A DNA stretch of 64,000 bases from Gemmatimonadales bacterium (GCA_044867445.1 JBIOUY010000027.1:18124-82123), one strand, 5' to 3'; positions 9,915 to 62,287 are shown, numbered from the stretch's first letter. Program-made: numbers and translations. The notes: generated from the sequence alone by a model not told the origin.

Positions 9915-10047
9915 CTAACAGCTAACAGCTAACAGCTAACAGCTAACAGCTAACAGCTAACAGCGGCGCCCTGGCTGCAGCGTCCGCTGCCTGGTCTGGC
10001 GATCTCGTCCAACGCGGACTGTTAGCTGTCAGCCGTTAGCCGTTAGC
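9915..10047. repeat. paired inverted tandem-array module A (CTAACAG x7, spacer, CTGTTAG/CCGTTAG-type arm)
   Basis: Seven perfect CTAACAG units at 9915-9963. The complementary arm ctgttagctgtcagccgttagccgttagc lies at 10019-10047. The module starts 12 nt after the P60 stop and ends 9 nt before the HAD start. Confidence 0.9.
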
Positions 10048-10055
10048 TTCTGTTC

Positions 10056-10748
10056 ATGAAACTCGTCCTCTTCGACATCGACGGTACCATCCTGCTCACC
10101 GCTGGAGCCGGTAGGCGTGCAATCACCGCCGCGCTCCGTAGTGAGGTGGGCGAGAACACCGCGTTCGAGCGGATCCGGTTCGATGGCAAGACCGATCCCC
10201 AGATCGTAGCCGAGATGCTCGAAGCCGCGGGGCAGCCGGTATCGCAAGATTCGGAGCTGGTGCGCTCGCTCTGTCGCCGCTATGTCCAGTTCCTCGCGGT
10301 GGAGCTGGAGCGCCCCAACAGCCGGACCACCCTGATGCCGGGTGTGCGCCCGCTGTTGGATCGCCTCGAAGCCGAGCCGAGCGTGGTCCTCGGATTGCTA
10401 ACCGGCAACGTCGCGGAAGGCGCGGCGCTCAAGCTGCGCTCGGGAGGACTGGATCCGGACCGTTTTCGCCTCGGCGCGTATGGCTCCGACGCCGGCCATC
10501 GGCATGAGCTCCCCGCTATCGCGGCGGAGCGAGCGGCACCGTTCTTCGGCCGGGTGCCGACCGGCGCCGAGATCGTCATCATCGGTGACACACCGGCGGA
10601 TATCGCCTGCGGCATGAGTGTAGCCGCTCGCGCGGTGGCTGTGGCGACCGGATCGTATTCCGTGGCCGACCTCATGGCTTGTTCTCCGCACGCCTTGTTC
10701 GAGGATCTGCGAGACACCGAGCGGGTGTTGCACGCGATTCTCCACTGA
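10056..10748 (+). CDS. HAD-superfamily hydrolase (phosphoglycolate phosphatase-like)
   Basis: N-terminal DxDGT motif (LFDIDGTIL) and C-terminal GD(T)xxD motif (IIGDTPADI). Confidence 0.8.
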   Translation: MKLVLFDIDGTILLTAGAGRRAITAALRSEVGENTAFERIRFDGKTDPQIVAEMLEAAGQPVSQDSELVRSLCRRYVQFLAVELERPNSRTTLMPGVRPLLDRLEAEPSVVLGLLTGNVAEGAALKLRSGGLDPDRFRLGAYGSDAGHRHELPAIAAERAAPFFGRVPTGAEIVIIGDTPADIACGMSVAARAVAVATGSYSVADLMACSPHALFEDLRDTERVLHAILH

Positions 10749-10751
10749 TCC

Positions 10752-11342
10752 ATGGCTCAGGAGCTCGAGCTCAAGGCCGTCGTCAGCGACCCGGCGCGGC
10801 TGCGGCAAGCACTGCTGACTGCCGGGGCGGTTCTCCAGTTCCAGGGAGAGATGAGCGACCGGCGCTTCGACCGCGGCGGTGAGCTGACCGCGCGAGATCA
10901 GGTCCTCCGGGTACGGAGCTATCATCACGCCGATGGTCGGGTCGACTCGACGCTGGGGTGGAAGGGCCCGGTGCGCCTCTCCCAGGGGTACAAAGAGCGT
11001 GAGGAGCTCGAGCTCCCGATTGCGAGCGAAGGCGACCCGCCCGAGGTCCTCCTGCGAGCGTTAGGGTACGAGGTGGTCCATGCGATCGATCGGCGGGTCG
11101 AGATCTATCGGCTCGACGCCGCCACCCTGCGGCTGGAGGCCTATCCTCGAATGGATCCGCTCCTCGAAGTCGAAGGCGAACCGGCAGCCATCGAACGTGC
11201 CATCCAGGCGACCGGAATCCCGCGCCGGGAATTCACTGCGGATGCGCTGACCGAGTTCGTTCTTCGATTCGAGAATCGAACCGGGCAGACCGCCGCGATT
11301 GCCTGGAACGAGAGCGCCGGCCCCAAGCCGTCCGTCCCCTGA
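10752..11342 (+). CDS. CYTH-domain protein (class IV adenylate cyclase / triphosphate tunnel metalloenzyme family)
   Basis: ExExK signature at the N-terminus (ELELK). About 195 aa, the typical CYTH size. Confidence 0.7.
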   Translation: MAQELELKAVVSDPARLRQALLTAGAVLQFQGEMSDRRFDRGGELTARDQVLRVRSYHHADGRVDSTLGWKGPVRLSQGYKEREELELPIASEGDPPEVLLRALGYEVVHAIDRRVEIYRLDAATLRLEAYPRMDPLLEVEGEPAAIERAIQATGIPRREFTADALTEFVLRFENRTGQTAAIAWNESAGPKPSVP

Positions 11343-12094
11343 TGCTGTCAGGCGACAGCGGCTCCGCCTGGGAGGTGCCTCAGCTCGGTCCGTCGCTCGG
11401 GCGACTGACCGACCCTCCATCGAAGGATCGGACCGGTATTCTGGGAGTCGCGCTGGACGATATCCGCCTCGATCTTGTGACCGGAGTGTTTGATCGGGCC
11501 GGCGCGGGTCGGTCCTTTATCGCCGCAGGCGACCGAGATGATGCGGTTGCCTCGCTCAACCGAGTAGCCTGGCTCGGTCTCTGGGAACGGGCCCTGGCCG
11601 CCGCCGCCGCTCGCATCGCCGAGGCGGCGAACGTGGGGTTCAACGACGCGGCGGTTGAGTCGCGGTTTCATCCTCGTCGGTTGCTGCCCCTTCTGCTTAC
11701 GCCTCAGGACACTCGCGCCATCGCCGCACGGCTGGGGAGTGGCGGTGCCACTTTCGTGGCTGCGCTGGATGTCCTGGAGCAAAGCGTACACGCATCCAGC
11801 CGGGGCGGGCGAACCCGGCTGGTGCAGGAGGAATGGCGGGGAGCGCTGCTGGCGGCTGCGCGGCGGCTGGAGTCGGCCTGGCTGGCACTGGAGGATGCCG
11901 CCCTGGCGGAGCAGCGGCGCTGGCAGGTGGAGATCGAGCTGGTGCGCGCTTGGCGCCGACCCGTATGGCCTATGTGGCTCCTTACTCTGGTATTGCTGTC
12001 CGCGGCAACCTACCTCGGCCTGGTTCTCGGTGGGATTGTCCCGGTGCCTCCTCCCCTCCGAGGCCTGGTGCTCTGGTGGTGGAACCGGCTGTGA
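11342..12094 (+). CDS. hypothetical protein with C-terminal transmembrane segments
   Basis: The start overlaps the upstream stop (TGATG) and the stop overlaps the acpS GTG. C-terminal hydrophobic stretch WPMWLLTLVLLSAATYLGLVLGGIV. No recognisable family. Confidence 0.55.
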   Translation: MLSGDSGSAWEVPQLGPSLGRLTDPPSKDRTGILGVALDDIRLDLVTGVFDRAGAGRSFIAAGDRDDAVASLNRVAWLGLWERALAAAAARIAEAANVGFNDAAVESRFHPRRLLPLLLTPQDTRAIAARLGSGGATFVAALDVLEQSVHASSRGGRTRLVQEEWRGALLAAARRLESAWLALEDAALAEQRRWQVEIELVRAWRRPVWPMWLLTLVLLSAATYLGLVLGGIVPVPPPLRGLVLWWWNRL

Positions 12095-12483
12095 GCGTGC
12101 TTGGCGTAGGCATCGATCTGGTAGACCTGGCTCGGGTAGCCCGGCTGCTGCAGGACAAGGGTGAGCAGGCCAGGATTCGGTTCTTCACCGAGGCTGAACG
12201 AGAATACCTCGACACTCGCCCCGATCCGACCGGGAACGCCGCGGCGCGGATCGCCGCCAAGGAAGCAGTGTATAAGGCGCTGCAATCGCTGCCGGGTGCG
12301 CGCGCCGTGGGGTGGCGGGAGATCGAAGTGGTTCGTGATGGGGAGGGACGGCCCGCCGTTCGGCTTCATGGACTCGCCGAGCGCCTGGCCCAGGAGCAGG
12401 GAGGACTTCGGATTCAGGTGTCGCTCACCCATTCGGCGACCACCGCCGGCGCCGTTGTGGTGGTGAGCGCCGGTCAGCCGTAG
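12091..12483 (+). CDS. acpS: holo-[acyl-carrier-protein] synthase
   Basis: VLGVGIDLVDLARV... and the EAVYKAL motif; about 130 aa. The GTG start overlaps the upstream stop (GTGA). The longer ORF-track version (11833) is an out-of-context extension. Confidence 0.8.
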   Translation: MSVLGVGIDLVDLARVARLLQDKGEQARIRFFTEAEREYLDTRPDPTGNAAARIAAKEAVYKALQSLPGARAVGWREIEVVRDGEGRPAVRLHGLAERLAQEQGGLRIQVSLTHSATTAGAVVVVSAGQP

Positions 12484-12744
12484 GCACTGCAACTGCGCAC
12501 TGCAACTGCGCACTGCAACTGCAACTGCGCACCACGGAGACACGGAAGACACGGAGATTGCACGGAACTGTAAGCGGGCTGCTTCTATTCTTTTGATAAG
12601 CTGAGGGTGCCTCTCCCCACCCCATCTTCTCATGTGAATGAGCCGGCGTGGCATTCCGTGCTGTCTTCGTGCTCTCCGTGTCTCCGTGGTGCGCAGTTAC
12701 AGTGCGCAGTTACGGTGCGCAGTTGCTTTGCCGAAGTGCGCAGC
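12484..12744. repeat. paired inverted tandem-array module B (compound: GCACTGCAACTGC-type plus ACACGGAG-type units)
   Basis: The left arm at 12484-12565 is (gcactgcaactgc)x3 followed by cacggagacacggaagacacggag. The right arm at 12656-12744 is ccgtgctgtcttcgtgctctccgtgtctccgtgg followed by (tgcgcagtta[c/a]ag)n, its reverse complement. A loop of about 90 nt with lower GC separates the arms. The module sits between the convergent acpS and kinase genes. Confidence 0.9.
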
Positions 12745-12755
12745 TTGATTGAGTC

Positions 12756-14567
12756 TTAGCCCAGCACCTCACGCACTTTGCGGGCGAGCACGTCGGAGGT
12801 GAACGGCTTGGGCAAGAAGGCGCCACCTTGCCCCACTCCCCGGGCGGCAAGCTCTCCATCGGAATATCCCGAGAGGAACAGGATGGGGACTTCCGGGTGC
12901 TCCCGGGCCATCTCCAGCGCCAATTCACTGCCGCCCATCTCCGGCATGACGATGTCGGTGATGACCAGATGGACCGGGCCGGCGTGTTCCGCCAGGCGAT
13001 CGAGGGCGTCGCGCCCGTGGCGGGCCTCGAGCACGGTGTAGCCCTGCTTCTCCAGCGCCTTGTTGGCAAAGACCCGCACGGCCTCCTCGTCCTCGACCAG
13101 CAGAATAGTCTCCGATCCCCGGGGCCCAGGCTCCTGATACAAGCGGGGTGATTGGTCGAGGCGCAATCCTTCAATCCTGGGCAGGAGGACCCGGAACGTG
13201 GCCCCGCACTGCGGGGCGCTCTCCACTTCGATGTGGCCACCCGCCTGCTTGACGATACCGTAGACGGTCGCCAGCCCAAGGCCGGTGCCCTGACCCGGTT
13301 CCTTGGTAGTGAAAAACGGGTCGAAGATCTTGCCCTGGATCGCGTGCTCGATCCCGCTGCCGGTGTCGGCGATGGTGAGCCGGATATAGGGCCCGGGCGG
13401 CAGGTCGGGGCCAACTCTCGGGTCGCTCTCGTTCAGAAATTCGTTGGCGGTCTGAACCAGGAGTCGGCCGCCCGCAGGCATCGCGTCACGGGCGTTCACC
13501 GCCAGGTTCATGATGACCTGCTCCAACTGTCGCGGATCGGCGTGCACGGCATCCAGCCCGGGGTCCAGGGAGCTTTCCAGGACGATGTCTTCGCCGAGTA
13601 GCCGGGGCAGCAGCCGCTCCATCTCCCGAATGACCCCGTTGAGATTCACCGGTTCCGGCTCCGCCACCTGCCTGCGACTGAAGGCCAGGATCTGGCGAGT
13701 GAGCGCCGCGGCCCGCTCCGACGCCTTGCGAATTTCCTCCAGGTCATCCCGGCGAGGGTCCGACGGTCCCAGGTCGTTCATCAGCAGGCTGGTATATCCC
13801 TGAATCGCGGTCAGCAGATTGTTGAAGTCATGGGCCACGCCGCCGGCGAATCGCCCGAGCGCTTCCATCTTTTGCGCCTGGCGGAGCTGTCCTTCGAGCC
13901 GCTCTCGCGCCGTGATGTCGCGCGCCGTGAGGATGACGTGCTCCTTCCCCGGCCAATCCCGGGGATGGTTCACCGTCGCTTCCAGGCTGCGCCACCCGCC
14001 ATCCGCGTGTCGAACGCGAAAGGCGATCGGCTCGCCGAAACCTGAGCGGCGAACGGTCGCCGCCAGGGCGAACCGTACGGCATCCACATCGCCGGGGTGA
14101 AGGAACCCCTCCAGGGGCTTTCGGGCGACCTGGTCTGGCGTCCATCCCAGCACATGGGGAAGGGAAGGGCTGGCGAAGCCGATCAACCAGCTCCGATCCA
14201 AGGTGAGGATGACGTCCGAGCCGTTCTCCAGCAGCATGCGGAACCAATCCTGGCGGTCGCGCAGGATATTGGTCCGGAGCCGCAGCTGTTGAGCCATCTG
14301 TCCAATTGCCGAGCCGAGGAGGGCAAAGTCATCGGTGCCCTCCAGCTCGATCGGCACGTCGAAGTCCCCGCCTGCGATGCGCCGGGTCGTACGGATGAGG
14401 GAGTGAGCTCGACGCGAGCGCTCACGCTCATACCAGACCCAAGCAATGAGGCAGAGCAGGAGAAATCCGGCGGTCCCGATGAGATACGTGTCGGGTCCGG
14501 CCGTCGTGGGGCCGGAATGGGAAGAAAAGGAAAACAGAGCCGGAACGGCTCTGAACGCAGCAGGCAT
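12756..14567 (-). CDS. hybrid sensor histidine kinase (TM-HAMP-PAS-HisKA-HATPase_c-REC)
   Basis: H-box AHDFNNLL, then N/G1/G2 boxes (NLAVNARDAM, DTGSGI, GTGLGL), then a C-terminal receiver (LLVEDEE...DIVMPEMGG). Start set at the ATG at 14567; upstream of it the ORF lacks coding character. Confidence 0.85.
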   Translation of the reverse strand: MPAAFRAVPALFSFSSHSGPTTAGPDTYLIGTAGFLLLCLIAWVWYERERSRRAHSLIRTTRRIAGGDFDVPIELEGTDDFALLGSAIGQMAQQLRLRTNILRDRQDWFRMLLENGSDVILTLDRSWLIGFASPSLPHVLGWTPDQVARKPLEGFLHPGDVDAVRFALAATVRRSGFGEPIAFRVRHADGGWRSLEATVNHPRDWPGKEHVILTARDITARERLEGQLRQAQKMEALGRFAGGVAHDFNNLLTAIQGYTSLLMNDLGPSDPRRDDLEEIRKASERAAALTRQILAFSRRQVAEPEPVNLNGVIREMERLLPRLLGEDIVLESSLDPGLDAVHADPRQLEQVIMNLAVNARDAMPAGGRLLVQTANEFLNESDPRVGPDLPPGPYIRLTIADTGSGIEHAIQGKIFDPFFTTKEPGQGTGLGLATVYGIVKQAGGHIEVESAPQCGATFRVLLPRIEGLRLDQSPRLYQEPGPRGSETILLVEDEEAVRVFANKALEKQGYTVLEARHGRDALDRLAEHAGPVHLVITDIVMPEMGGSELALEMAREHPEVPILFLSGYSDGELAARGVGQGGAFLPKPFTSDVLARKVREVLG

Positions 14568-14700
14568 GTGACGACAACGCCGAAAGAGCTGTAATTCCCG
14601 CGAAACATAGTTGATACCTGGTTTACAGTGTACAGTGCACCTCTTCCAATTCCGACTAGCGCACTCTAGTTTAGCAGCTGGTGACTCAAACAGAGTGAAA

Positions 14701-24384: not shown

Positions 24385-24611
24385 AGTAGGAAGTGAGAAG
24401 TGAGAAGTAGAGGAGTAAGGAGTGAGGAGCGATGTCCTCCTGGAGAGAGCCCGGAAGGGCGACCGGAAGGGGCCGAAGCTCGATTTGGTTTCGGCTCCCT
24501 TCGTTCGCTGCGCTCAGTCCAGGGTGACTGCAGGCTCCCCCGACGTTCCCGCCTTCTCACTTCTTACTTCTCACTTCTTACTTCTTACTTCTCACTTCTC
24601 ACTTCTCACTC
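24385..24611. repeat. paired inverted heptamer-array module C (GAAGTGA/GGAGTAA type), inside the thiS-thiG junction
   Basis: The left arm at 24385-24429 is purine-rich heptamers. The right arm at 24553-24611 is CTTCTCA/CTTCTTA units. The 123-nt core contains a degenerate GATCCCTCGCTGCGCTC-like motif at 24495-24528. The thiS stop TGA (24610-24612) abuts the array. Confidence 0.9.
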
Positions 24612-24825
24612 ATCCGCCCCCGACAAAGTGCACCAGCTCCACGCGATCCCCCTGGGCCAGCGTGGTCTCTCCCAGCCGCGGTCGCCGAACGATCTCCCGA
24701 TTGAGCTCGACCACGACAGTCCGAGGATCCAGCGTGAGGTGACCCAGCAGATCGAGCAGAGTGGCCGGGCTCCGAATGCGGCGAGCCTCGCCATTCACCA
24801 GGATCTCGATTTCGGCCGAGGTCAT
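24610..24825 (-). CDS. thiS: sulfur-carrier protein ThiS
   Basis: 71 aa ending ...VHFVGGG (C-terminal Gly-Gly). The ATG at 24825 overlaps the thiE stop (ATGA). The 175-aa ORF-track version is a false extension. Confidence 0.85.
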   Translation of the reverse strand: MTSAEIEILVNGEARRIRSPATLLDLLGHLTLDPRTVVVELNREIVRRPRLGETTLAQGDRVELVHFVGGG

Positions 24826-27260: not shown

Positions 27261-29051
<1,791 letters not shown>

Positions 29052-31237: not shown

Positions 31238-31250
31238 GGGTGGAAAGTAG

Positions 31251-31500
31251 CAGCAAGAAGTAAGAAGTAAGAAGTAAGAATGTGAGAGGTGAGGAGTAAG
31301 GAGTAAGGAGCAAGGAGTGAGGAGTGAGGAGCAGGGTTAGTCCTCCTCATCCCGAGCGTAGGCCAGGGATCTGCTCAGCTGTCATCGCGACCCGCCGAGC
31401 AGACCCCTCCGTCAGGTACGCTCCCTCGGGATGACGAACCCGTTCAGTGGGTCACTCCTCACTCCTCACTCCTCACTCCTTAATTCTCACTGCTCACTGC
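31251..31500. repeat. paired inverted heptamer-array module D (GAAGTAA/GGAGTGA type), between the zinc-ribbon ORF and ruvB
   Basis: The left arm at 31251-31334 has about 12 units. The right arm at 31453-31500 is CACTCCT units followed by CACTGCT units. The core is itself a nested inverted repeat: cctcatcccgagcg at 31345 pairs with cgctccctcgggatgacg ending at 31436. Confidence 0.9.
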
Positions 31501-31676
31501 TTTTCTTGCAGCCTCGCCGTCCAGCGCACCGGTCGCTCGCCCGGCTGAATGAAGTGCCGGGCACCACAGTGGGAACACCGGTCGGTCAGCTGGATCGCGC
31601 GCGCCGGCACCAGTTTGCGATTGGTAGTTCCGCAGCGAGTGCAGTTCCACTCGGCGGTCACGGCAGCAACCGGCAT
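31494..31676 (-). CDS. small zinc-ribbon protein (CxxC...CxxC)
   Basis: 60 aa with CTRCG...CSHCG. It fills the gap between ruvA and module D, and its stop lies inside the right arm of the module. Confidence 0.5.
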   Translation of the reverse strand: MPVAAVTAEWNCTRCGTTNRKLVPARAIQLTDRCSHCGARHFIQPGERPVRWTARLQEKQ

Positions 31677-35740: not shown

Positions 35741-35964
35741 GCAGGGGAGCAGGAAGTGAGAGGTGAGAGGTGACGGAGGGGCAGCGAGGGATCTGGGCCG
35801 GCTGCATCAAAGTCGGCGAGTAGATCCCTCGGTCGCTTGTGCTCCGTCGCTGCGCTCGGGGCACGCTCCTCGGGATTGCGCTCGGGGCATGCTCCTCGGG
35901 ATGAGGATTCACTCCGCACTCCTCACTCCTCACTTCTCACTTCTTACTTCTTACTTCTTACTGC
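35741..35964. repeat. paired inverted heptamer-array module E (GTGAGAG / CTCACTT, CTTACTT type) in a divergent promoter region
   Basis: Left arm at 35741-35779 and right arm at 35910-35964. The core holds gcagcgagggatct (35781) inverted against agatccctcggtcgc (35822). It also holds three tandem GCGCTCGGG/GCTCCTCGGGAT-like copies. Confidence 0.9.
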
Positions 35965-35992
35965 CCTCTTCTCACCCCGTTAAGTTTCAGTC

Positions 35993-39438: not shown

Positions 39439-40419
39439 GTGACTGAGACGTACTCTGATGCCCGGATCCTCCTGATCGGGGCGTTCGACGACGCCATGTA
39501 TGCCCATACGGCGCTGCGCCGTCGCGCGCTTCAGCGTCTGGGCTGCGCGGTCGGGACACTGAATCTGACCAGCCCGCGCCGCTGGTGGAGCCGGTTCCGG
39601 CGGGTCAGTCTGCGGGAGCGGTTGGAACAGGCGATCGCGCAATCGGTGCCCGGGATCGTACTCGTCCTGGAAGGCAGACAGCTCGAGGCAGCGCTCGTCG
39701 CCGAACTCAAGCGCCGCACTCGCGCTCTGTGGCTCAACTGGTTCTGCGATGGCCGCCGCTCGCTCGAGACGGTCAGGTCCATTGCCCCGGCCTATGATCG
39801 GGTCTTCGTCGCTGGCAGCGAGGTGGTCGCCGCTCTGAAGCAGCCGGGCCAGCCGCCGGCCCGGTATCTCGCCCCCGCCTGCGATCCCTCCGTGCATCGG
39901 CCCATGCGATCTCGAGATCAGTTTCGGGCGAACCTGGTGTTCGCGGGCACCGCGACGCCCCATCGCGAGCGACTCCTGTCCGAGTTGGTGGAGTTCGGGT
40001 TGGCGGTATGGGGGCCTGGATGGCGAAAGACGAAACTACGGGACTACTGCCGGGGAGAGTTGCTGGATCACCTCGACTATATCCGGGCCTATGCCGGTGC
40101 ATCGGTCGCGCTCAATCTGCAGTGGGGTGAGAGCTCGGGCCCGGCTCTCGATCCCGGGTGCAACCGCCGGCTTTTCGAGCTTGCCGCCATCGGCGTGCCC
40201 CAGGTCGCGGAGGACCGTCCCGACCTGCATCTCCATTTCCAGGAGGGCTCCGAAGTGCTCGTCTCCCGGGGCATCGCCGACTTCAAGGCGCTCATCACGG
40301 AGGCGTTGCACGACCGGGGATGGGCCGAGCAAGTGGCGGCCGGCGCGCGGCAGCGAGCGCTGACCGAGCACACCTATATGCACCGGATGGCCGAGCTGTT
40401 GAAGGCAGTGAGAAGTTAG
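39439..40419 (+). CDS. CgeB-family (DUF3880-type) glycosyltransferase-like protein
   Basis: The pattern FAGTATPHRERLL...WGPGW...NRRLFELAAIG...HTY..R resembles the CgeB/YkvP-type family. GTG start. The last codons and the stop lie in module F. Confidence 0.55.
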   Translation: MTETYSDARILLIGAFDDAMYAHTALRRRALQRLGCAVGTLNLTSPRRWWSRFRRVSLRERLEQAIAQSVPGIVLVLEGRQLEAALVAELKRRTRALWLNWFCDGRRSLETVRSIAPAYDRVFVAGSEVVAALKQPGQPPARYLAPACDPSVHRPMRSRDQFRANLVFAGTATPHRERLLSELVEFGLAVWGPGWRKTKLRDYCRGELLDHLDYIRAYAGASVALNLQWGESSGPALDPGCNRRLFELAAIGVPQVAEDRPDLHLHFQEGSEVLVSRGIADFKALITEALHDRGWAEQVAAGARQRALTEHTYMHRMAELLKAVRS

Positions 40420-40614
40420 AAGTGAGAAGTGAGAAGTGAGAACAAGTGAGAAGTGAGAAGTGGATCGAGTTCGCCGTTTCCAGTCCGCCGCGACTTCCCG
40501 GTACGTTCGGGACAGATCCCTCGCTGCGCTCGGGATGAGGAGCCCCGCTCCTCACTGCTCACCTCTCACCTCTCACCTCTCACCTCTCACCTCTCACTGC
40601 TCACTGCTCACTGC
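40405..40614. repeat. paired inverted heptamer-array module F (GTGAGAA / CTCACCT, CTCACTG type) between convergent glycosyltransferase genes
   Basis: Left arm at 40405-40462 with about 8 units. Right arm at 40547-40614 with about 10 units. The core carries GATCCCTCGCTGCGCTCGGGATGAGG at 40515-40540. Both flanking genes terminate inside the arms (stops at 40417 and 40601). Confidence 0.92.
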
Positions 40615-41527
40615 TGTTCGGCATCTCCCCCGTCTTCAAATACTCGCTAAACACCCGCAGGTAGCCTTCCGCCATCGCCAGGTGGGAAAAGTGCCGCTCG
40701 GCACGGGCCCGGCACGCGGCGGGATCGATCCGATCGATGCCGCGCGCCAGTTCGACCAACTCCTCCACGCTATCCCCCAGGGCGCCTACTTCCGCTGTGA
40801 CGATCTCGGGCAAGCTACCCCGACGGGTGCCCAGTATCGGTGTGCCGCACATCAAGGCCTCGAGCAGAACATTGGCGCAGGGCTCGTCCCAGAGGGCCGG
40901 CATCCAGAGGCAGCGCGCGCCGGCCAACAGCGTCATGCGTTGTTCCCCGTACACTGTGCCAACGTACCGGACCCAGCGACTGAAGCTAGGCCGCCAGCCG
41001 CCCGCCACCACCAGACGCCGCCGGCTACGCTTCGCTCCCTCCGCGGCCCAGTGATAGCCTTTGGCATGGTGCAGCCGTCCCAGGAAGAGGTCGAAGTCGG
41101 TCTTGATCGGCTGGAAGGGATATTCCCTCGGGTCCACGCCGTTGTACACGAACGTGTGGCCACCATGACGCCGAGCATGATCGGCACTGACGAACAGGGT
41201 GTTCGGGGGGCAGACCTGGCCAGGCCTCCGGTTGCCGGCCAGGCGCCAGATCCAGGGCACCCGGGGCGGAACATGCAATGGCGAGAAGGCGCAGAGAATA
41301 TCGATATCAGCAGGCAACCATGGTTGGATATCGAAACTCGGCCCGCGTGCGGCCCGGACGTCCACCGGCACCAGCGTGGTCTCGCGGACCTCTGATCCCG
41401 ATCCGGCCAGCAGGGTAACGCGGGTTCCCAACTCCGCCAATCCGCGAGCCACAGTGACGATTGCCCGCTGAGTGCCGCCATAACCCTGCACCGGGAGCCG
41501 GTCGGGAAAGAAGAGGGCCACGTGCAT
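40601..41527 (-). CDS. glycosyltransferase family 4 (GT-B, GT1 clan)
   Basis: C-terminal EPCANVLLEALMCGTPILGTRRGSLPE (E-x7-E type motif). N-terminal YGGTQR... region. Confidence 0.75.
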   Translation of the reverse strand: MHVALFFPDRLPVQGYGGTQRAIVTVARGLAELGTRVTLLAGSGSEVRETTLVPVDVRAARGPSFDIQPWLPADIDILCAFSPLHVPPRVPWIWRLAGNRRPGQVCPPNTLFVSADHARRHGGHTFVYNGVDPREYPFQPIKTDFDLFLGRLHHAKGYHWAAEGAKRSRRRLVVAGGWRPSFSRWVRYVGTVYGEQRMTLLAGARCLWMPALWDEPCANVLLEALMCGTPILGTRRGSLPEIVTAEVGALGDSVEELVELARGIDRIDPAACRARAERHFSHLAMAEGYLRVFSEYLKTGEMPNSSEQ

Positions 41528-50306: not shown

Positions 50307-51441
50307 TCTCGCCGCGCTCCGCCGGGAGGAGTTCCCCTGGTGCGAGCACACGGTCTACCTCAACAACGCCAGCACTGGCCCACTGCCTGAGCGCACCCGC
50401 CTGGGGTTGGAAGAATTCAACCGCCGCCGGACGCAGCCATTCCGTCTGCCCGATCGCGATGTGTTCGCGATGCTGGATCACTCGAGAGCTCTCATTGGAG
50501 AGCTGATCGGCGCGGACCAGGAGGAGATCGCCCTCTCGGTCAATACCGGTTTCGGGCTGAGCCTGGCGGCCCGGGCCCTGCCGCTCAAGGCAGGGGAGAT
50601 CGTGCTGGGAAGTGATCGTGAGTTCCCCGCGAACGTGTACCCGTGGATGCGCCTCCGCGAGAGCGGCATCACCTTCGAGCGGACCCCCACGACTGAAGCC
50701 GGCTGGCCCGACGAAGACCGTCTGCTGGAGCGGCTGGGGGACCCTCGGGTTCGAGTGGTGGCGATCTCCTGGGTCCAGTTCAGCAATGGGTACATGGTGG
50801 ATCTGGCCCGGTTGTCAGAGGCTACCCGGAGCGCGGGCGTGTTCCTGGTGGTAGACGCGATTCAGGGTGTGGGACAAGTTCCCCTGGACTTGCGGCGGAC
50901 CCCGGTTGATGTGCTGGCCTGCGGGGGCCAGAAATGGCTGCTCTCACCCTGGGGCTCTGGATTCACCTATGTGCGTCGGGAGATGATTGCTCGGCTCAGC
51001 CCAGCCGTTACCGGGTGGATGGCCTTCGAGGGGACAGACGACTTCAGCCGATTGACCCGCTACGACGACAGGCTGAGGGGGGATGCACGACGCTTCGAGC
51101 TGGTTACGCTCCCCTATCAGGAGTTCGCCGGAATGAACGTCTCGCTCGAGCTGCTGCTTTCGATCGGGGTGGAACGCACCCGAGAACACCTACGGGCCTT
51201 GCATCGGCCGATTCTCGAATGGGCGCAGCGTGCCGGGGCCCGGGTGGCGTCACCCACGGACGGCCACGGCTCGGGTATCCTCTGCATTGCGCCACCCGCG
51301 GTGGACGATGTCTTCCGACGGCTCAAGGCGGCTCGGATCATCTGCAGCCTGCGGGAGGGGATGATCCGGCTGAGTCCGCACTTCTACAACAGCGTGAGGG
51401 ATATGGAGCGGGTGGTGGAGGAGCTGGAAGGTGAGAGGTGA
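50296..51441 (+). CDS. class V aminotransferase-fold PLP enzyme (cysteine desulfurase/selenocysteine lyase-like)
   Basis: YLNNASTGPLP N-terminus and VDAIQ...GGQKWL (PLP-Lys region). The GTG at 50296 overlaps the upstream gene end. The last codons GER and the stop lie in the module G arm. Confidence 0.75.
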   Translation: MSVDLAALRREEFPWCEHTVYLNNASTGPLPERTRLGLEEFNRRRTQPFRLPDRDVFAMLDHSRALIGELIGADQEEIALSVNTGFGLSLAARALPLKAGEIVLGSDREFPANVYPWMRLRESGITFERTPTTEAGWPDEDRLLERLGDPRVRVVAISWVQFSNGYMVDLARLSEATRSAGVFLVVDAIQGVGQVPLDLRRTPVDVLACGGQKWLLSPWGSGFTYVRREMIARLSPAVTGWMAFEGTDDFSRLTRYDDRLRGDARRFELVTLPYQEFAGMNVSLELLLSIGVERTREHLRALHRPILEWAQRAGARVASPTDGHGSGILCIAPPAVDDVFRRLKAARIICSLREGMIRLSPHFYNSVRDMERVVEELEGER

Positions 51442-51939
51442 AAGGTGACAGGTGACAGGTGAGAGGTGACAGGTCAGTCTTTGGGCCCGTACCGCTTTCT
51501 CAGCCCCATGAGCAGGGCCTGCGCTCTGGAGCATTGCTTTCGAGCTGGCTGGACGACCGATTTCCGGCACGATGCTCTCCGACATGCAAAGATCCAGCAG
51601 CTCTGCTGTCTCGACCGCGGAACCATAGGCAATGGTCAGATGATGTCGAAACGACCGACTCGATTGACGGGCGTACCCTTCAGCGATATTCAGTTGTACT
51701 GATAATGACGCCCGCTGCAGTTGACTGAAGACACTCGCGAGTCGAGGCTGATAGTAGTCCCGGGTGATCGCCATGACATGACCAACCAGGGCGCGTGCGA
51801 CCTGCCAGGCGACGAGGGACCGATGGTCTCGCATACTGGATGATGGCGCGGGCCGCGCGGCTTGTTGTATCGCGATCCCGCAGCCTCAATCCTGGCAGCG
51901 CTCCGGCCTTCACCTGTCACCTGTCACCTGTCACCTTCC
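51431..51939. repeat. paired inverted heptamer-array module G (GTGAnAG / CTGTCAC type) enclosing a four-helix-bundle gene
   Basis: The left arm at 51431-51472 is six GTGA[G/A/C]AG units. The right arm at 51908-51939 is (CACCTGT)n. The 435-nt core carries the four-helix-bundle ORF on the minus strand. The right arm ends 2 nt before the ATG of the next gene. Confidence 0.9.
51474..51834 (-). pseudogene. four-helix-bundle protein (23S rRNA intervening-sequence protein family), apparently frameshifted
   Basis: The N-terminal about 95 aa fit the family (SLVAWQVA...LQRASLSVQLNIAEGYARQS...AYGSAVETAELL). The family-like C-terminus (...RAQALLMGLRKRYGPKD*) and a stop at 51474-51476, at the arm edge, are in another frame, because 361 nt is not divisible by 3. 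The in-frame 194-aa ORF instead runs antisense through the array and the neighbouring gene. Confidence 0.55.
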
Positions 51940-57168: not shown

Positions 57169-58419
57169 ATGCCAGCCCGCCGCCTGGCGGCCCGGTGGGT
57201 GATCCCGATGGAGGACCACCCGATCGAGCGGGGTGCGGTGCTGATCGGTGACGATGGCCGGATCATCGCGGTGGGTCCGGATGAGCAGGTTGCTCGTTCT
57301 TCCGACGTGCCGGCCGAGGAATTCGGGAATGCCGCCCTGCTCCCCGGGCTGATCAATACCCATACCCATCTGGAGCTCACCGGTCTCCAAGGGGAAGGCG
57401 CCGAGCCTGACTTCCCCCGCTGGATCATGAGCGTGCGTGAGCGCAAGGCGGCTCGCACCCGAGAGCAGTTTCTCGCGGCTGCACATGCCGGACTCGCGGC
57501 CTGTTGGGCCGCTGGGGTAACCACCGTCGCCGATACCGGAGATTCCGGCGCGGTGATTCAGGCCCTGGCCCAAGCCGGCGGCTCCGGGATTGCGTACCAG
57601 GAAGTCTTTGGAGCTCATCCCGACGATGTCGGCGTGAGCCTCCCGGGGCTTCAGGCCAGGGTCGAGGCTCTCGGCGCCTTCGCCACCGGCCGAGTCCGGA
57701 TGGGAGTCTCGCCCCATGCTCCGTATACGGTCAGCGGTCGACTCTATGCCGCGACGGCCGAATGGGCTCGGGCTGAGTCCCTTCCGCTAGCGGCGCATGT
57801 TGCCGAATCGCCTGCCGAGTGCGACCTTCTCGCCCGGGGAATCGGCGGCTTCGCGGAGGCATGGCGGCGGCGCGGCATTCCGCTGCCGAGCCCTCTGGGT
57901 TGCACGCCACTCGCGTGGCTGGATGAACACGGGGTGCTGGGCGAAAGCACCCTCTGTATCCACGGCATCCAGGTGACCTCGACCGATCTGGACCGAATGC
58001 GAGCTGCCGGGGCGGCCCTCGCACACTGCCCTCTGTCAAATCAGGCCCATGGCCACGGGAGCGCACCGCTGCGGCAGTATCTCGAGCGTGGTATCCGGGT
58101 TGGCCTGGGAACCGATTCGGTCATCAGTGTCGGGATGTTGAACCTCATGGCCGAAGCGCGGGCGGCGCGAGGAGCGGCTGGTCTGGACCCCCACCGCGCC
58201 CTCGCGCTGTGCACATTGGAAGCTGCTCGGGCGCTTGGGCTCGACGGCGAGATCGGGAGCCTCCGGGCCGGAAAGTGGGGGGACTGCACCGTGATCCTGC
58301 TGCCGGCCGATGTGACCGAGCGATCGCTGGTCGAGCGAATCTTGGCAACCGGCCCGGAGGACGTGGTAGCGACCTACCTGTCTGGAGGAGCGGTGTATCG
58401 AGCTCACGCCCGAGTATGA
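57169..58419 (+). CDS. amidohydrolase-superfamily deaminase/chlorohydrolase-like enzyme
   Basis: INTHTHLE metal-binding motif, and downstream HxxE and CIHG/GTDS motifs. Start set at the ATG at 57169, just after the PBP stop. Confidence 0.75.
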   Translation: MPARRLAARWVIPMEDHPIERGAVLIGDDGRIIAVGPDEQVARSSDVPAEEFGNAALLPGLINTHTHLELTGLQGEGAEPDFPRWIMSVRERKAARTREQFLAAAHAGLAACWAAGVTTVADTGDSGAVIQALAQAGGSGIAYQEVFGAHPDDVGVSLPGLQARVEALGAFATGRVRMGVSPHAPYTVSGRLYAATAEWARAESLPLAAHVAESPAECDLLARGIGGFAEAWRRRGIPLPSPLGCTPLAWLDEHGVLGESTLCIHGIQVTSTDLDRMRAAGAALAHCPLSNQAHGHGSAPLRQYLERGIRVGLGTDSVISVGMLNLMAEARAARGAAGLDPHRALALCTLEAARALGLDGEIGSLRAGKWGDCTVILLPADVTERSLVERILATGPEDVVATYLSGGAVYRAHARV

Positions 58420-58862
58420 AGATCCAACGGCATGCGGCAATCCTGCGCGTGGTGCGCGACCGGCGCATCGAAAGCCAGGATGAGCTGCGTGAGGCGTTGG
58501 CCACCGAGGGCTTCGTGGTGACTCAGGCTACGCTCTCCCGTGACATTCGCGAACTCGGCCTGGCCAAGCTGGCCGATCCTCAGGGCGGGGCGTATTACAC
58601 CCATCCGCATCGTGCGGCCGTGCGGCCGGACTTGGCCCAGATCCTGCCGACATTGCTGGTGAGCGTGGATGGGGTAGGACCCCTGCTCGTGATCAAGACG
58701 GCCAGCGGGTCTGCCGGTGCCGTAACCGAAGCCCTGGACCACGCGGGCTGGGCCGAGATCATCGGGACCATCGCCGGGGACGACACGGTCCTGGTCGTCA
58801 CCCGCAGCCAACGGCTGCGTGAATCCATCGCTTCCCGGATCCAGGGACTGGTCAAAAAGTAG
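58416..58862 (+). CDS. argR: arginine repressor
   Basis: RHAAILRVV...ESQDEL...GFVVTQATLSRDIRELGL winged-helix N-terminus. C-terminal GTIAGDDTVLVV motif. ATGA overlap with the upstream gene. Confidence 0.85.
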   Translation: MKIQRHAAILRVVRDRRIESQDELREALATEGFVVTQATLSRDIRELGLAKLADPQGGAYYTHPHRAAVRPDLAQILPTLLVSVDGVGPLLVIKTASGSAGAVTEALDHAGWAEIIGTIAGDDTVLVVTRSQRLRESIASRIQGLVKK

Positions 58863-59042
58863 ACAGGCAACGTCATTCCCTTGCTCGCCTGCTCGGCGTT
58901 CATTACGATTCCAGAGCGCGATTAGCCGGTCTGCATCAGTCCAGCCTACCGGTCCTATCCCGCCGGGCCCGTCTCCCACCCCCGGGGCGAGCGAGGCGGG
59001 TTTCGTGCGTCCTCAACCCGTTTTCGCCACGGAGAAAATCGC

Positions 59043-59597
59043 GTGCGGTGCCTGGCGTTGAATGCCTCCTTCGAGCCACTGACAATGGTGCCGGTGCGGC
59101 GCGCCTTGCGACTCGTCATCGAGGGCAAGGCGGAGATCGTGGAATCCGACGGTCCCGACCTGGTTCGAAGTGAACGCCTGACGCTGCCCAAACCTGCAAT
59201 TATCCGGCTCATCAAGTTCGTGCACGTTCCCCGCCGCTTCCGTCGCCAGGTCACCAACACATTCCTCTTTGCTCGTGATGGTTACCGATGCCAGTTCTGC
59301 CACCGGGGACAGAACGAGCTGCGTCATCGGGAATGCCTGACCCGGGACCATCTGGTCCCGCTCTCTCGCGGGGGCGACAACGAATGGACCAACGTGGTGA
59401 CCGCCTGCAGTTCCTGCAACACTCGCAAGGGTAATCACCTGCCCGAAGAGTGCGGCATGCACCCGCTGATCGTGCCGAGGGAGCCGCACTTCGTACACCT
59501 GTCGTGGGCTGTGCGCCGGCTCTCGGCGGCGCAGGCGAAATACATCAAGTTGTTCTACGGTGAGGAAGCCCTGCGGGCGTTGGGGGGGACGGTCTGA
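59043..59597 (+). CDS. HNH endonuclease-family protein
   Basis: CQFC...LTRDHLVPLSRGG...NVVTACSSCNTRKG, the zinc-finger HNH pattern. GTG start. Confidence 0.8.
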   Translation: MRCLALNASFEPLTMVPVRRALRLVIEGKAEIVESDGPDLVRSERLTLPKPAIIRLIKFVHVPRRFRRQVTNTFLFARDGYRCQFCHRGQNELRHRECLTRDHLVPLSRGGDNEWTNVVTACSSCNTRKGNHLPEECGMHPLIVPREPHFVHLSWAVRRLSAAQAKYIKLFYGEEALRALGGTV

Positions 59598-59601
59598 GGG
59601 C

Positions 59602-59790
59602 GTGAAGCGTGAAAGGTGAAACGTGACAGGTGAAGCGTGAGAGGTGAAAGGTGAAAAGGCGCCAAAATTCGGCTCCTTTTTACTTTTTACGGTTCACGTT
59701 TCACGTCTTTTACGTTCTTTTACGTTTCCCGGTTCACGTTTCACCTGTCACCCGTCACCTGTCACCTGTCACCTTCACCCCTCACTTCAC
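59602..59790. repeat. paired inverted heptamer-array module H (GTGAnnn x8 / about 16 complementary units, AT-rich inner part)
   Basis: The left arm at 59602-59657 is eight exact-period GTGA[A/C/G][A/G][C/G/A] units. aaaaggcgcc pairs with ggctcctttt around the 7-nt loop AAAATTC (59664-59670). The right arm runs to 59790 with CTTTTTA, GTTCACG, TTTCACG and CTGTCAC units. The module starts 5 nt after the HNH stop, and the convergent gene stop (59782) lies inside the right arm. Confidence 0.92.
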
Positions 59791-60465
59791 TCTAAACGCC
59801 GGGCTCCTCGCCTCCAGCCGCAGACTCGGTAGCCCCGCCAGTCGTAGCAGGAACCGCGTTGCTCCGCGGCCCATCGCGTCGCCAATGCTCTCCTTTCCTC
59901 GTGCCACCTCTCCCAGGTCGCCGGCGAGGAAGCGCTCCAACTCGTCAAGATCGGTATCCGACAACGTAGACACCTGCAGCGAGGCGGCATAGTAGTAGGT
60001 GCCGGCGTCGGCAGGCAGCACGTTCACCTGATAGGAGAAGGCGAGAGCGGCACTGAGCGCGTCCAGAGTGGCATATCTCCTCTCCTGTGCCCGGCCTCCT
60101 ACCAGTGTCAGCATGGTGTACTGATCGAGCAACGGCTCGTGACGCATCACGACGTCCCACTCCGCCTGTCGGATGAAGGCGTCGAACCAGCCGGGCTTCG
60201 ACCGCCACACCTCAACTCGGTAATGCAACCGCACCGGGAGCCCGGACCGCAGGGCGGAGAGCCACCGGGTATCCCCCAACAGATTGTGCGAGCGGACAAT
60301 GGGCGCTCGAGCACCGTCGGCGGCAGAATCCCGGGCCAGCCTCACCTCGAGCGACACCGACCCGGTGTCTTGTGCAGCGGCGGGCTCCGCGGGGATCGTC
60401 CCCAGAGCTAGAGGGATGGCCACTGCCCAGGCTCGCCAGACAGCGGTGCCGGGCAGAAGAGGCAT
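59782..60465 (-). CDS. secreted hypothetical protein (possibly DUF4390-like)
   Basis: Signal peptide MPLLPGTAVWRAWAVAIPLALG...AAAQD. The body resembles the family found next to NtrY/NtrX operons, but I cannot confirm that. Start set at the ATG at 60465. Confidence 0.5.
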   Translation of the reverse strand: MPLLPGTAVWRAWAVAIPLALGTIPAEPAAAQDTGSVSLEVRLARDSAADGARAPIVRSHNLLGDTRWLSALRSGLPVRLHYRVEVWRSKPGWFDAFIRQAEWDVVMRHEPLLDQYTMLTLVGGRAQERRYATLDALSAALAFSYQVNVLPADAGTYYYAASLQVSTLSDTDLDELERFLAGDLGEVARGKESIGDAMGRGATRFLLRLAGLPSLRLEARSPAFRVK

Positions 60466-60476
60466 CGCGAAGAACA

Positions 60477-62258
60477 CTAGAACCGGCGCTGCAGCCTGAC
60501 CACGAACTTGACCGGCTCGGCGTCGGTGAGGGCCTTCACCAGATACGCGCCGATCTGGCCTGCATCGATCCCGACCCCGACATCCCACTTCCACTCGTGC
60601 AGGGAGGGAATGCGGTTGACCGGCACTTGACTCGGCCCATCCCCCGCGAGCCAGGCCTTTCCAGCGTCACCCAGCAGCACCAGATCGGCCTCTTCGATGC
60701 CGATGAAGCGCCCGTTGGGTCCACCGTCTCGGTCCCGGAAGCGGTGGCCGAGGTTGAGGCCCAGCCTGGTCCGCACCTCGATTTGGGCGGCGATCATGCG
60801 GTCGCAGAGCGCCAGCTGGGACGGATCGTTGAAGCCTCTCGGTGCGCAGGTGAAGGCCCGGAAGTCATAGCCCGGCATCAGGTCCAGCCCGCCCAGTGAG
60901 ACTCGGCGCTGCACCGGCAGCCGGTCGCCGCCGACCCATCCATCCGCCCGGAGCCGAGCGTTGACCCGGAGCGAGGGCGTGAGCCGTGAATACCGCCGCA
61001 GGTCCAGGGAGAGACGATCGAAGTGGTAGCCACCGAAAAGCGGGGGCGCGGGACGAATGACCTCGGGTAAGGTCACCGGCGCGACGTTATCGCTGGTGGA
61101 GTGCTCGAACCGGGCTCGGAGGAACCAGCCGGTGCTGGGAAGGTCCCGCTCGTTTCGAGTATCGAAGTCCAGCGCCAGGCCGGTGGTAAAGTAGGCGCCG
61201 TCGTCGATCAGCGGATTTCGCCGCCACCGGTCGCTGTTGCGCAGGAGCGACCATGGGTCAGTGGCGCGGACCGAATGTTCGCCGTCGCGACGGAGACTGA
61301 GCTCGAATCGGAGCGGACGCAGCGGCTGAACCCAGGCCGCCGCGCCGCCACCCTGGCGTTCGAAGTAGTCGTGGTAGTCGCGTTGGAGCAGGAACGCGGA
61401 CCAGCCATTCTCGCTGGGTGAGAGTGGCTGGTCCTCGATGGAGCTGGTCTCGCTGTACACTCGCCCCGTGATGCCGGCGACAGCGGTCTTGACCTCGAGG
61501 CGGAGGTTGTACCCGAAATCGCTGCTCAACCGCGAGCCTTCGCTCGCACTCCGCAGGATCCCCCGTAGGTCGAGCCTTGCCACCGAGCCGCGAGTCGGGC
61601 GCAGCTCGAACATCGGCCCGAACACAATGGGCAGCCCTTCTATCCGGTTGTAGGTGCCTCCGGTCCCCAGCGTGAGTGTGGTTCTGACTTTTCCGGTCTG
61701 AAAGCTGGTCCGCGCGGTGGCCAGCTCGGACAGGGGGCGCCGGCGCTCGCGCAGAACCAGTATGCCGTCGGCGTTGCGCAGCACCGGTGCGGCATCCCAG
61801 TACACCCGCTCGCGGCCCTCGTGCTGAGCGTTGGGGGAGCGGATCAGGCGTCCACCAACCACCAGGATGTCCCCGTCCACCACCGCGCCCGGCAGCAGAT
61901 ACAGGGTGCCATTGGCGACCGCGATCGGACCTGAGACCCGGCCCGAGATGCGGAGCGCGCCGCGATACTGCCCCAGACGGCCCTCGAACCGGCTGTCAGG
62001 TGGTAGGCTTACATCTCCCTGCATGCGAGTGGTGGCGGAATCGTTGTAGAAGGCGATCAGGTCGCTGACGACGCTGGACGGAGGCCCGCCGCGCATCACC
62101 GTGTCAATCGGAGGGGCGTCGGGATCGATGACGATGACGCTGTCCTGAGCCCGCAGGCGCGTGACGACGCCGAAGAAGAGAAGAGCATGAAAGGTGAAAC
62201 GTGAAACGTGAAAGGTGAAACGTGAAAGGTGAAGGGCGGAGCGAGGTGATATGGGCAT
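60477..62258 (-). CDS. Omp85-family outer-membrane beta-barrel protein with an N-terminal bactofilin-like/polymer-forming repeat region
   Basis: C-terminal barrel ending ...VRLQRRF (terminal Phe). The N-terminal region has GxxxVxGDIxVVGG-type repeats. The only in-frame starts (ATG 62258, GTG 62273) lie upstream of repeat array I, so the array is translated (SRFTFHVSRFTFHALLFFGVV). Confidence 0.7.
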   Translation of the reverse strand: MPISPRSALHLSRFTFHVSRFTFHALLFFGVVTRLRAQDSVIVIDPDAPPIDTVMRGGPPSSVVSDLIAFYNDSATTRMQGDVSLPPDSRFEGRLGQYRGALRISGRVSGPIAVANGTLYLLPGAVVDGDILVVGGRLIRSPNAQHEGRERVYWDAAPVLRNADGILVLRERRRPLSELATARTSFQTGKVRTTLTLGTGGTYNRIEGLPIVFGPMFELRPTRGSVARLDLRGILRSASEGSRLSSDFGYNLRLEVKTAVAGITGRVYSETSSIEDQPLSPSENGWSAFLLQRDYHDYFERQGGGAAAWVQPLRPLRFELSLRRDGEHSVRATDPWSLLRNSDRWRRNPLIDDGAYFTTGLALDFDTRNERDLPSTGWFLRARFEHSTSDNVAPVTLPEVIRPAPPLFGGYHFDRLSLDLRRYSRLTPSLRVNARLRADGWVGGDRLPVQRRVSLGGLDLMPGYDFRAFTCAPRGFNDPSQLALCDRMIAAQIEVRTRLGLNLGHRFRDRDGGPNGRFIGIEEADLVLLGDAGKAWLAGDGPSQVPVNRIPSLHEWKWDVGVGIDAGQIGAYLVKALTDAEPVKFVVRLQRRF

Positions 62259-62287
62259 ACGATGGTCCTTCACTGTTCACGTTTTAT
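62187..62287. repeat. paired inverted heptamer-array module I (GTGAAAC/GTGAAAG x7 with a short complementary arm)
   Basis: The left arm at 62187-62235 has strict 7-nt period. The right arm at 62267-62287 is ccttcac tgttcac gttttat. The left arm overlaps the 5' coding end of the Omp85-like gene. Confidence 0.85.

Follow-up and report, generated by a model that had tools for sequence, protein, structure and literature searches.

What are the repeat modules that fill the spacers between genes in a compact Gemmatimonadales genome, and to which known class of bacterial element do they belong? We addressed this question in a 64,000-nucleotide (nt) stretch of DNA from a soil Gemmatimonadales bacterium (GCA_044867445.1 JBIOUY010000027.1:18124-82123), referred to here as the window, whose intergenic regions hold ten modules, A to J. 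Each module consists of an array of short tandem units, a core, and an array of the reverse-complementary units. Module G encloses a gene for a four-helix-bundle (4HB) protein of the family PF05635, and it is because of this gene that the modules can be tied to the intervening sequences (IVSs) of 23S rRNA. On balance, we lean toward the reading that the ten modules are IVS-type repeat hairpins located outside rRNA, which evolve through slippage and probably are cut by RNase III. The assignment to IVS-type hairpins can be made with fair confidence from the architecture and the cargo gene that the two have in common.

A minus-strand open reading frame (ORF) within the core of module G (432 nt) matches Pfam PF05635 (E value 2.5e-19) and NCBIfam TIGR02436 (E value 3.6e-18). 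An earlier interpretation made without database searches, here called the sequence-only reading, had held that no coding sequence explains the modules, which is wrong for this one. The gene has a 72-nt leader (51835-51906). Compared to the closest intact orthologue, it carries one extra A, in an A-run near position 51564, and is frameshifted as a result. Reading in the +1 frame gives an intact conserved C-terminus, which terminates at a TGA codon (51476-51474) adjoining the array, and the NCBI annotation is the 194-residue read-through product (P0001). The extra A is either a very recent frameshift, making the copy a pseudogene, or a homopolymer sequencing error. Intact orthologues of 85-89% identity are found at the equivalent locus in two metagenome contigs, L002 and L003, between an aminotransferase gene and a HerA/DUF87 gene. 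They are likewise enclosed by inverted heptamer arrays, of 8-15 units, which differ from those of the window in length and unit and in one of the two contigs include 15 perfect GGTGACA units. A search of the six-frame translation of the window with the 4HB hidden Markov model gave module G as the single match and revealed no decayed 4HB remnant in modules A-F or H-J at E < 0.01. The gene-less modules therefore cannot be claimed as deletion derivatives.

The association between 4HB genes and inverted arrays extends far beyond the window. The sample comprised 80 loci encoding relatives of the module G protein in species-representative genomes, all but one of them Gemmatimonadota metagenome-assembled genomes (MAGs), plus L002 and L003, for a total of 82. 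Period-7 arrays were present within 350 nt on both sides of 53 of these 82 genes, and on at least one side of 65. In 52 of the 53 two-sided cases, the upstream array has exact 7-mers in common with the reverse complement of the downstream array. At random positions in the same data, arrays occurred on both sides in ~1.2% of trials, so that two-sided arrays are enriched ~50-fold around the 4HB gene family. The upstream array ends ~60-100 nt before the 4HB start codon, the downstream array begins 10-70 nt past the gene, and the core of most gene-bearing modules measures 413-507 nt.

The same arrangement was found in two other groups of bacteria. A plasmid search by tBLASTn with the crystallized Xanthomonas protein XCC0516 yielded 25 records, nearly all cyanobacterial and one from Gemmatirosa kalamazoonensis, a cultured member of the Gemmatimonadota. 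Twelve of the plasmid genes were inspected (11 cyanobacterial and the one from Gemmatirosa); 11 have arrays on both sides, inverted in 10 of those, and the twelfth, in Nostoc PCC 7120, has an ISL3 transposase gene where the 5' arm would be. The XCC0516 gene and its orthologues lie between accB and accC, on the same strand, across Xanthomonadales genera (L182-L186: Xanthomonas, X. sacchari, Rhodanobacter soli), with a 3' array that ends directly at the accC ATG. The arrays before and after the gene are (GGGAATC)4 and (GATTCCC-type)4 in Xanthomonas, and (GGGATTC)4 and (GAATCCC)4 in Rhodanobacter, which is a compensatory unit change in both arms between genera. The inverted-array architecture encloses most sampled 4HB genes in the Gemmatimonadota, Cyanobacteriota, and Xanthomonadales. 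Gene-less copies are nevertheless the majority, with about one module in ten carrying the 4HB gene.

Several further observations were made at these loci. On cyanobacterial plasmids, the 4HB gene and its arrays also occur within CRISPR-Cas operons (L173, Anabaena sp. 90 pANA02; L179, Pseudanabaena galeata pPg_01; L174, Picosynechococcus PCC 7003 plasmid), flanked by cas6 and cas4 in two genera and by cas10 and cmr3 in the third. Arrays can be much larger than those of the window: L063 (1162-1400) holds 3-4 copies of a ~62-nt higher-order block of GTGAACG-type heptamers, L032 (2791-3155) has ~32 units, and Anabaena sp. 90 (L173, ~430-680) has ~25 units upstream of the 4HB gene. The CTAACAG/CTGTTAG unit of module A recurs as TTAGCTG and AAAAGCT/AATCGCTAA arrays beside cyanobacterial 4HB genes (L176, Calothrix PCC 7716; L179, Pseudanabaena), and such GCTAA-type units may be a second recurrent class besides GTRAnnn and GGGAnnn.

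Within the window itself, arrays were located with Tandem Repeats Finder, arms were paired by an inverted-repeat search, and all ten modules were read directly (Table 1). The sequence-only reading had described ten modules of one architecture (array, core, reverse-complement array), and this description was upheld: period-7 arrays, and the 13-mer and 8-mer arrays of module B, were recovered at every locus it had named, with an arm complementarity of 75-96% across modules. A detector for periods of 6-9 returned 14 arrays in the window, which is ~65% G+C, versus 0-1 per block-shuffled window (n=20; mean ~0.25). The unit classes were also largely as described, with seven copies of the GTGAnnn/GTAAGAA type (GTRAnnn), CTAACAG in A, and a compound array in B; the correction concerns J, whose unit is GTCnTTG. 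The core is not unique in every copy, as had been thought, since D, E, and F have in common an inner palindrome, roughly GTCATCCCGAGCGnAGCGAGGGATC. Stop codons lie inside the arrays at F (both convergent genes), G (the upstream gene), and H (the right-hand gene), and at A, D, G, and I the distance from an array end to a start codon is 0-14 nt. According to the genes called in a close relative, modules occupy four of the six spacers that exceed 60 nt between 24 and 41 kb, and for this segment the claim that modules account for most of the noncoding DNA is roughly right.

Table 1. Repeat modules and associated features of the window, with fold z-scores against dinucleotide shuffles (+ strand/- strand)
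Feature	Coordinates	Strand	5' arm	Core or loop	3' arm	Setting	Fold z
Module A	9912-10049		CTAACAG x7.9 (9912-9966)	~52 nt	GTTAGCC/CTGTTAG (10019-10049)	between two + strand genes; begins 9 nt past stop codon, ends 7 nt before next ATG	-5.8/-8.7
Module B	12483-12732		compound, GCACTGCAACTGC x3 + CACGGAGA x3 (12484-12557)	~100 nt	TGTCTCCG x3 + GTGCGCAGTTACA x3 (12662-12732)	between convergent genes; begins directly after TAG stop	-15.8/-15.1
Module C	24385-24614		GTGAGAA/GTAAGGA (24385-24432)	120 nt	CTTCTCA/CTTCTTA (24553-24614)	thiS-thiG junction, - strand (gene context from close relatives)	-8.0/-6.4
Module J (short)	27261-27345		GTCnTTG units		complementary CAAnGAC units	tgt-yajC junction, - strand	-2.0/-1.8
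Module D	31249-31505		GTAAGAA/GTGAGGA x12 (31249-31333)	inner palindrome, 31346-31376 pairing with 31397-31435	TCACTCC (31450-31505)	14 nt upstream of ruvB ATG, within ruvC-ruvA-small ORF-ruvB string	about -7.5 to -7.8/-9.4 (dG -125.8)
Small ORF, ~59 aa	31506-31682	-				between ruvA and ruvB; module D lies between ORF and ruvB	
Module E	35741-35975		GTGAGAG (35741-35776)	palindrome pieces, 35781-35795 with 35822-35836 and 35896-35908; 26-nt direct repeat (35851-35902)	TCACTCC/TCACTTC/TTACTTC (35909-35975)	between divergent glycosyltransferase-9 and response-regulator/PglZ genes	-7.8/-4.0
Module F	40405-40617		GTGAGAA x8 (40405-40464)	half palindrome, 40515-40539	CTCACCT/CTCACTG x9.6 (40551-40617)	between convergent glycosyltransferase genes	-6.4/-9.0
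Module G	51426-51939		GGTGAGA/GGTGACA (51426-51474)	leader and 4HB gene	TCACCTG (51907-51939)		-3.6/-4.4
4HB protein gene	51474-51834	-				in module G; PF05635 (23S_rRNA_IVP), TIGR02436	
Module H	59600-59790		GTGAAAG/GTGAAAC/GTGACAG x8 (59600-59656)	loop ~20 nt	TTTTTAC/GTTTCAC/CTGTCAC, ~16 units (59676-59790)	between convergent genes	-8.7/-9.6
Module I	62187-62290		GTGAAAG/GTGAAAC x7 (62187-62236)	short	degenerate, 2-3 units, TTCACTG/TTCACGT (~62270-62290)	5' arm adjoins start codon of - strand gene (CAT at 62186-62188)	-4.9/-3.4

Nine of the ten modules fold better than shuffled sequence on both strands, with z-scores from -3.4 to -15.8; B forms the strongest hairpin and J is marginal. The repeats of J are real despite the marginal fold because their unit number varies between relatives (L167 versus L168). 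An assembly artifact is contradicted by the identical architecture in independent MAGs, Joint Genome Institute (JGI) metagenome contigs, and finished replicons of cultured strains. Many metagenome contigs with the response-regulator/PglZ gene start or stop within a few hundred bases of site E (L085-L164), and because so many comparison contigs end at or near a module site, repeat hairpins may be a frequent cause of short-read assembly breaks.

The modules obey a common set of rules. Among 83 modules identified by a strict pair-finder, the 5' arm is purine-rich and the 3' arm pyrimidine-rich in 76, and the order is reversed in only 2. Units in this set start with GTGA (54), GGGA (8), GTAA (6), or GGCG (4). 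The usual period is 7, with 8 or 9 in some modules, and arrays usually have at least four units, each with a conserved 4-nt core (GTRA or GGGA) and three variable positions. Across 73 modules the heptamer consensus takes 32 different forms, and the two arms of a module agree. The arms are often unequal in length (12 versus 5 units in D, 8 versus ~16 in H), and a mirrored order of unit variants between arms beat 95% of unit-order shuffles in only 8 of 56 modules.

We sought to determine how the modules change by comparing five close contigs, along with 80 loci orthologous to the response-regulator/PglZ gene beside module E. The RuvB protein of the window is 98-99% identical to Gemmatimonadales MAG proteins. 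At site D, a relative with 98% identical RuvB keeps both arms without the 116-nt core, and in three contigs that encode one and the same RuvB most of the 5' arm is gone and the only difference is the number of CTCCTTA units, which is 3, 4, or 7. This site is essentially without a module in the more distant L084, and no module is present in lineages at 78% identity. Sites C and E have other units in relatives with 98% identical RuvB; at C in L165, GTGAAAC units, the type of window modules H and I, replace GTGAGAA, and there is no long core. Site E ranges over the 80 loci from empty spacers of ~70-100 nt, at many loci, to modules with unrelated units (GTGAGCG, GTGAACG, GGGAACA, 8-mers such as GGCGGAGA, or 9-mers), always with the purine-rich arm first. 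Site F is empty in the close relative L165, where 5 nt separate the convergent genes, and this single filled/empty pair showed no target-site duplication. A mini hairpin of one unit remains at sites that are otherwise empty, as with GCAGTAGcaaCTCTAC in L165 (site F) and AGTAAGtctaCTCCTTCAC in L084 (site D), and in L167 a single arm has been lost. In L086 (1-100), a 98% identical relative, two copies of the repeat ctacaattggctgacac stand in place of the 5' arm upstream of site E, and may be the end of another inserted element.

Gain and loss of units between near-identical strains is the signature of slipped-strand mispairing, and the counts of 3, 4, and 7 units beside identical RuvB bear out the slippage-driven array evolution that the sequence-only reading had proposed. 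Its expectations of one module family with constant architecture and of variable occupancy in orthologous spacers also agree with the data. It is largely demonstrated that whole modules or single arms are gained or lost, and that the arms stay complementary as the unit changes. Independent slippage in the two arms is therefore insufficient.

The inner palindrome, roughly GTCATCCYGAGCGnAGCGARGGATC with its complement, is a separate repeat found in the loops of several modules, and it also occurs in L089, L093, L095, L101, L064, and L091. We considered it as an integral part of the module and rejected this, as half of 14 occurrences (7 half-sites) are not within 200 nt of any array. Module D contains the palindrome in the window but lacks it in the relative with 98% identical RuvB. 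The palindrome looks like an independent element, resembling repetitive extragenic palindromic (REP) sequences, that often lands in module loops. The small ORF between ruvA and ruvB is conserved (L165, 9708-9887) and carries paired, CxxC-like Cys motifs, with no Pfam match recorded.

A number of known elements could be set aside for the window. All modules lie between protein-coding genes and not in a 23S rRNA helix; a search of the window against Rfam, at gathering thresholds and at E <= 1, gave no rRNA or other relevant match, and a tRNA scan of the window found none. Between 24 and 43 kb, there were 9 terminator-like sites versus 9.0 expected, none of them at the five modules there, and a promoter/terminator consensus scan of this segment gave no signal at the modules. 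None of the stems is followed by a T-tract. For the segment scanned, the suggestion that the modules are terminators is accordingly not borne out. At least six unit types occur among the ten window modules, unlike the near-identical copies expected of a miniature inverted-repeat transposable element (MITE) or transposon, and the only gene found inside a window module is the 4HB gene, although window ORFs were not all scanned for the REP-associated tyrosine transposase (RAYT).

Among described systems, the closest in form are the IVSs of 23S rRNA (S23p/PF05635 ORF; Leptospira, Coxiella burnetii, Haemophilus sp.), which likewise have a long stem built from terminal inverted repeats and a PF05635 ORF in the loop, as in module G alone within the window. 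The stem of the Coxiella IVS contains 2-4 GACAGAT heptamers in strain-dependent number, RNase III cuts at the first repeat, and some strains show decay of the PF05635 ORF in the loop (PMC4990558). The variable-number tandem heptamers, located in the 5' part of the Coxiella stem, and the decaying ORF find their counterparts in the arrays of the window and the frameshifted copy in G. The two differ in that the IVSs lie in helix 9, 25, or 45, whereas the window modules lie between genes, nine of ten without an ORF, and have much longer arrays, of up to ~16 units. RNase III processing has been demonstrated for the IVSs, whereas for the window modules it would follow by analogy.

Tandem heptamers also fill spacers in Xanthomonas, where intergenic (GGGAATC)n arrays include 70-75 inverted pairs per genome, many of them convergent and able to form stem-loops (Rehm et al. 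2015, PMC4692102). These occur in all gene-orientation contexts, are mostly transcribed, and vary in length between related species while the type is kept (PMC4692102). Unlike most window units, which are GTRAnnn without G-quadruplex (G4) potential, the G-rich Xanthomonas unit was read as a G4 former, and the authors linked the arrays to neither the 4HB gene nor IVSs (PMC4692102). Their repeat #15 overlaps the annotated start of XCC0516 and is listed without comment (PMC4692102); the XCC0516 orthologues have a complementary array on the other side of the gene. The short tandemly repeated repetitive (STRR) and TAACTGA-type sequences of cyanobacteria are intergenic heptanucleotide arrays as well, often end just upstream of start codons, are patchy across phyla, and flank cyanobacterial 4HB genes. 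In contrast to the modules, they were described as direct repeats, with only one inverted among ~170 TAACTGA sets and no hairpin architecture or enclosed gene reported; heptamer repeats were reported in cyanobacteria and Beggiatoaceae (PMC4679880).

Hairpin-forming repeats in intergenic spacers and operon junctions are likewise a feature of REP sequences, bacterial interspersed mosaic elements (BIMEs), and the REPIN-RAYT system, REPINs being hairpin-forming pairs of REPs. REP sequences differ from the modules in being conserved ~20-40 nt per genome and not tandem microsatellites. In REPIN-RAYT, one protein gene is flanked by inverted repeats and many gene-less copies are dispersed, with occupancy that varies between strains. 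RAYT is a Y1 transposase, whereas we know of no nuclease, transposase, or other catalytic activity for PF05635.

We propose the following mechanism for IVS-type hairpins outside rRNA. The modules have a long imperfect stem of tandem 7-nt units (sometimes 8, 9, or 13), closed by a loop that is short, a small palindrome, or the 4HB gene. Because they lie within operons (ruvA-ruvB, thiS-thiG, tgt-yajC, accB-accC) and abut start or stop codons, the modules are probably co-transcribed with their neighbors. The long duplex, as in the Coxiella IVS, would probably then be cut by RNase III, which would make the element tolerable and uncouple the flanking cistrons. Since GTRA includes a TGA or TAA triplet and 7 is not divisible by 3, the 5' arm would stop translation in all three frames within 21 nt when read from either side, and would shield the stem from ribosomes whatever slippage the array undergoes. 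This could account for the purine-first polarity of GTRA-type units only. Arm complementarity is probably kept by selection on the hairpin, by template switching between the inverted repeats, a well-established source of mutation, or by both.

Several observations weigh against this account. The 4HB gene is present in only one of the ten window modules and in one of 18 modules at the loci orthologous to site E (L084-L164; strict pair-finder), where it is likewise inside the array pair. The all-frame stop is not general, as there is no stop codon in GGGAATC, GGCGGAGA, GGGAACA, or the units of module B. Both the function of the modules and their cleavage by RNase III are matters that we infer, the latter by analogy with rRNA IVSs. 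In gene-bearing modules, stem stability has no strand bias (sense more stable in 23 of 50, antisense in 26 of 50; Wilcoxon p = 0.9); with no G-U signature toward the sense strand, nothing points specifically to RNA rather than DNA, and the RNA-level element of the sequence-only reading loses support to that extent. The mean consensus distance between arms, 0.55 within versus 2.23 between modules, is partly circular because pairs were chosen for complementarity. Unit type and 4HB protein show no clear co-variation (rho -0.23 on non-independent pairs, confounded by phylogeny), and GGGA-type units mark no 4HB protein clade. Exact unit numbers in short-read assemblies are uncertain, and arrays in short-read MAGs may be collapsed. 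Finally, the modules are dispensable, given that sites are empty in close relatives. This dispensability and the absence of strand bias would also fit a neutral by-product, in which small hairpins at stop codons and operon junctions are expanded by replication slippage and 4HB genes merely lie in such spacers, as would the one-unit mini hairpins left at sites F and D and the often very unequal arms, one of which can vanish. We consider a neutral origin rather unlikely, however, as arm complementarity persists through complete replacement of the unit between lineages, or through its change in both arms at accB-accC, and as both the 76:2 purine-first polarity and the ~50-fold enrichment around one gene family in three phyla need explaining.

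The modules might instead constitute a mobile-element family, in which a gene-bearing copy is autonomous and gene-less hairpins are moved in trans, in the way that RAYT moves REPINs or a transposase moves MITEs. The variable presence of modules at orthologous sites, the many gene-less copies per gene-bearing copy, the occurrence of 4HB modules in unrelated conserved operons (accB-accC, cas6-cas4, cas10-cmr3), and the horizontal transfer thought to occur for rRNA IVSs (PMC4990558) would all agree with this. Transposon-type mobility, which the sequence-only reading had raised, is nonetheless unsupported because the filled/empty pair at site F lacks a target-site duplication, although no scan for transposases was made. 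Unit sequence differs among copies in one genome, neither PADLOC nor PHROGs has a family matching the 4HB proteins P0002 and P0005, and a tBLASTn search of a phage collection with the XCC0516 4HB fragment gave no match. Because sites stay occupied across lineages while their sequence turns over, change in place fits better than repeated insertion, and mobility appears unlikely. Another role for the protein would be as a ring-shaped pentamer that wraps five or more heptamers of RNA or DNA, much as TRAP wraps GAG repeats, so that the arrays would be its binding sites and neighboring transcripts would be regulated or stabilized in cis and trans. The tight linkage of gene and arrays in three phyla, the usual array of at least four units with a conserved core, the five chains in each of the PDB entries 2GSC (XCC0516) and 2RLD, and the toroidal homopentamers described for the family (Lin 2006, as cited in PMC4990558) are compatible with such binding; the lack of clear co-variation between protein clade and unit type, and the variation of units within a genome that shows only one 4HB gene in this window, make it doubtful in our view. 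A broader but tentative possibility is that the 4HB pentamer and the tandem-heptamer hairpins form one unrecognized cross-phylum element, whose protein binds, maintains, or propagates the repeats and whose gene-less hairpins are dispersed partners, like REPINs to RAYT. An action of the protein on the repeats could not be supported because any correspondence between unit type and protein clade amounts to no more than a weak phylogenetic signal. Structure at the DNA level, as G-quadruplex or cruciform, or ordinary intrinsic termination, is very improbable. GGGAATC arrays form G4 in vitro (PMC4692102) and the hairpins are symmetric on both strands, but the window units (GTGAGAA, GTAAGGA, GTGACAG, GTGAAAC, CTAACAG) are free of GGG runs; because GTRAnnn units lack G-runs, a G-quadruplex cannot be the common property, and the terminator results given above for 24-43 kb stand against termination.

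The sequence-only reading had not recognized the modules as a described system. However, inverted heptamer pairs in Xanthomonas (PMC4692102) and the variable heptamer stem of Coxiella (PMC4990558) had already been reported. No literature was found that links PF05635 genes outside rRNA to flanking heptamer arrays, or that treats dispersed arrays as a gene-less form, in a search that did not cover most subscription journals. The components are published, and what appears to be new is the link between the 4HB gene and inverted arrays outside rRNA, together with the gene-less form.

These findings join three puzzles: the function of the very large PF05635/TIGR02436 protein family, the origin and purpose of rRNA IVSs, which have been open since ~1990, and the over-representation of heptamer microsatellites in bacteria. 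Outside rRNA, the 4HB genes of at least three phyla normally reside within a tandem-heptamer stem, the architecture of the IVSs, and gene-less counterparts of this structure account for much of the sparse intergenic DNA in a compact Gemmatimonadales genome. The questions become testable in tractable organisms, for example at accB-XCC0516-accC of Xanthomonas or in Gemmatirosa. If protein and repeats do form a single element, one system would account for the origin of ORF-bearing 23S IVSs, the cyanobacterial STRR sequences, and the GGGAATC arrays of Xanthomonas.

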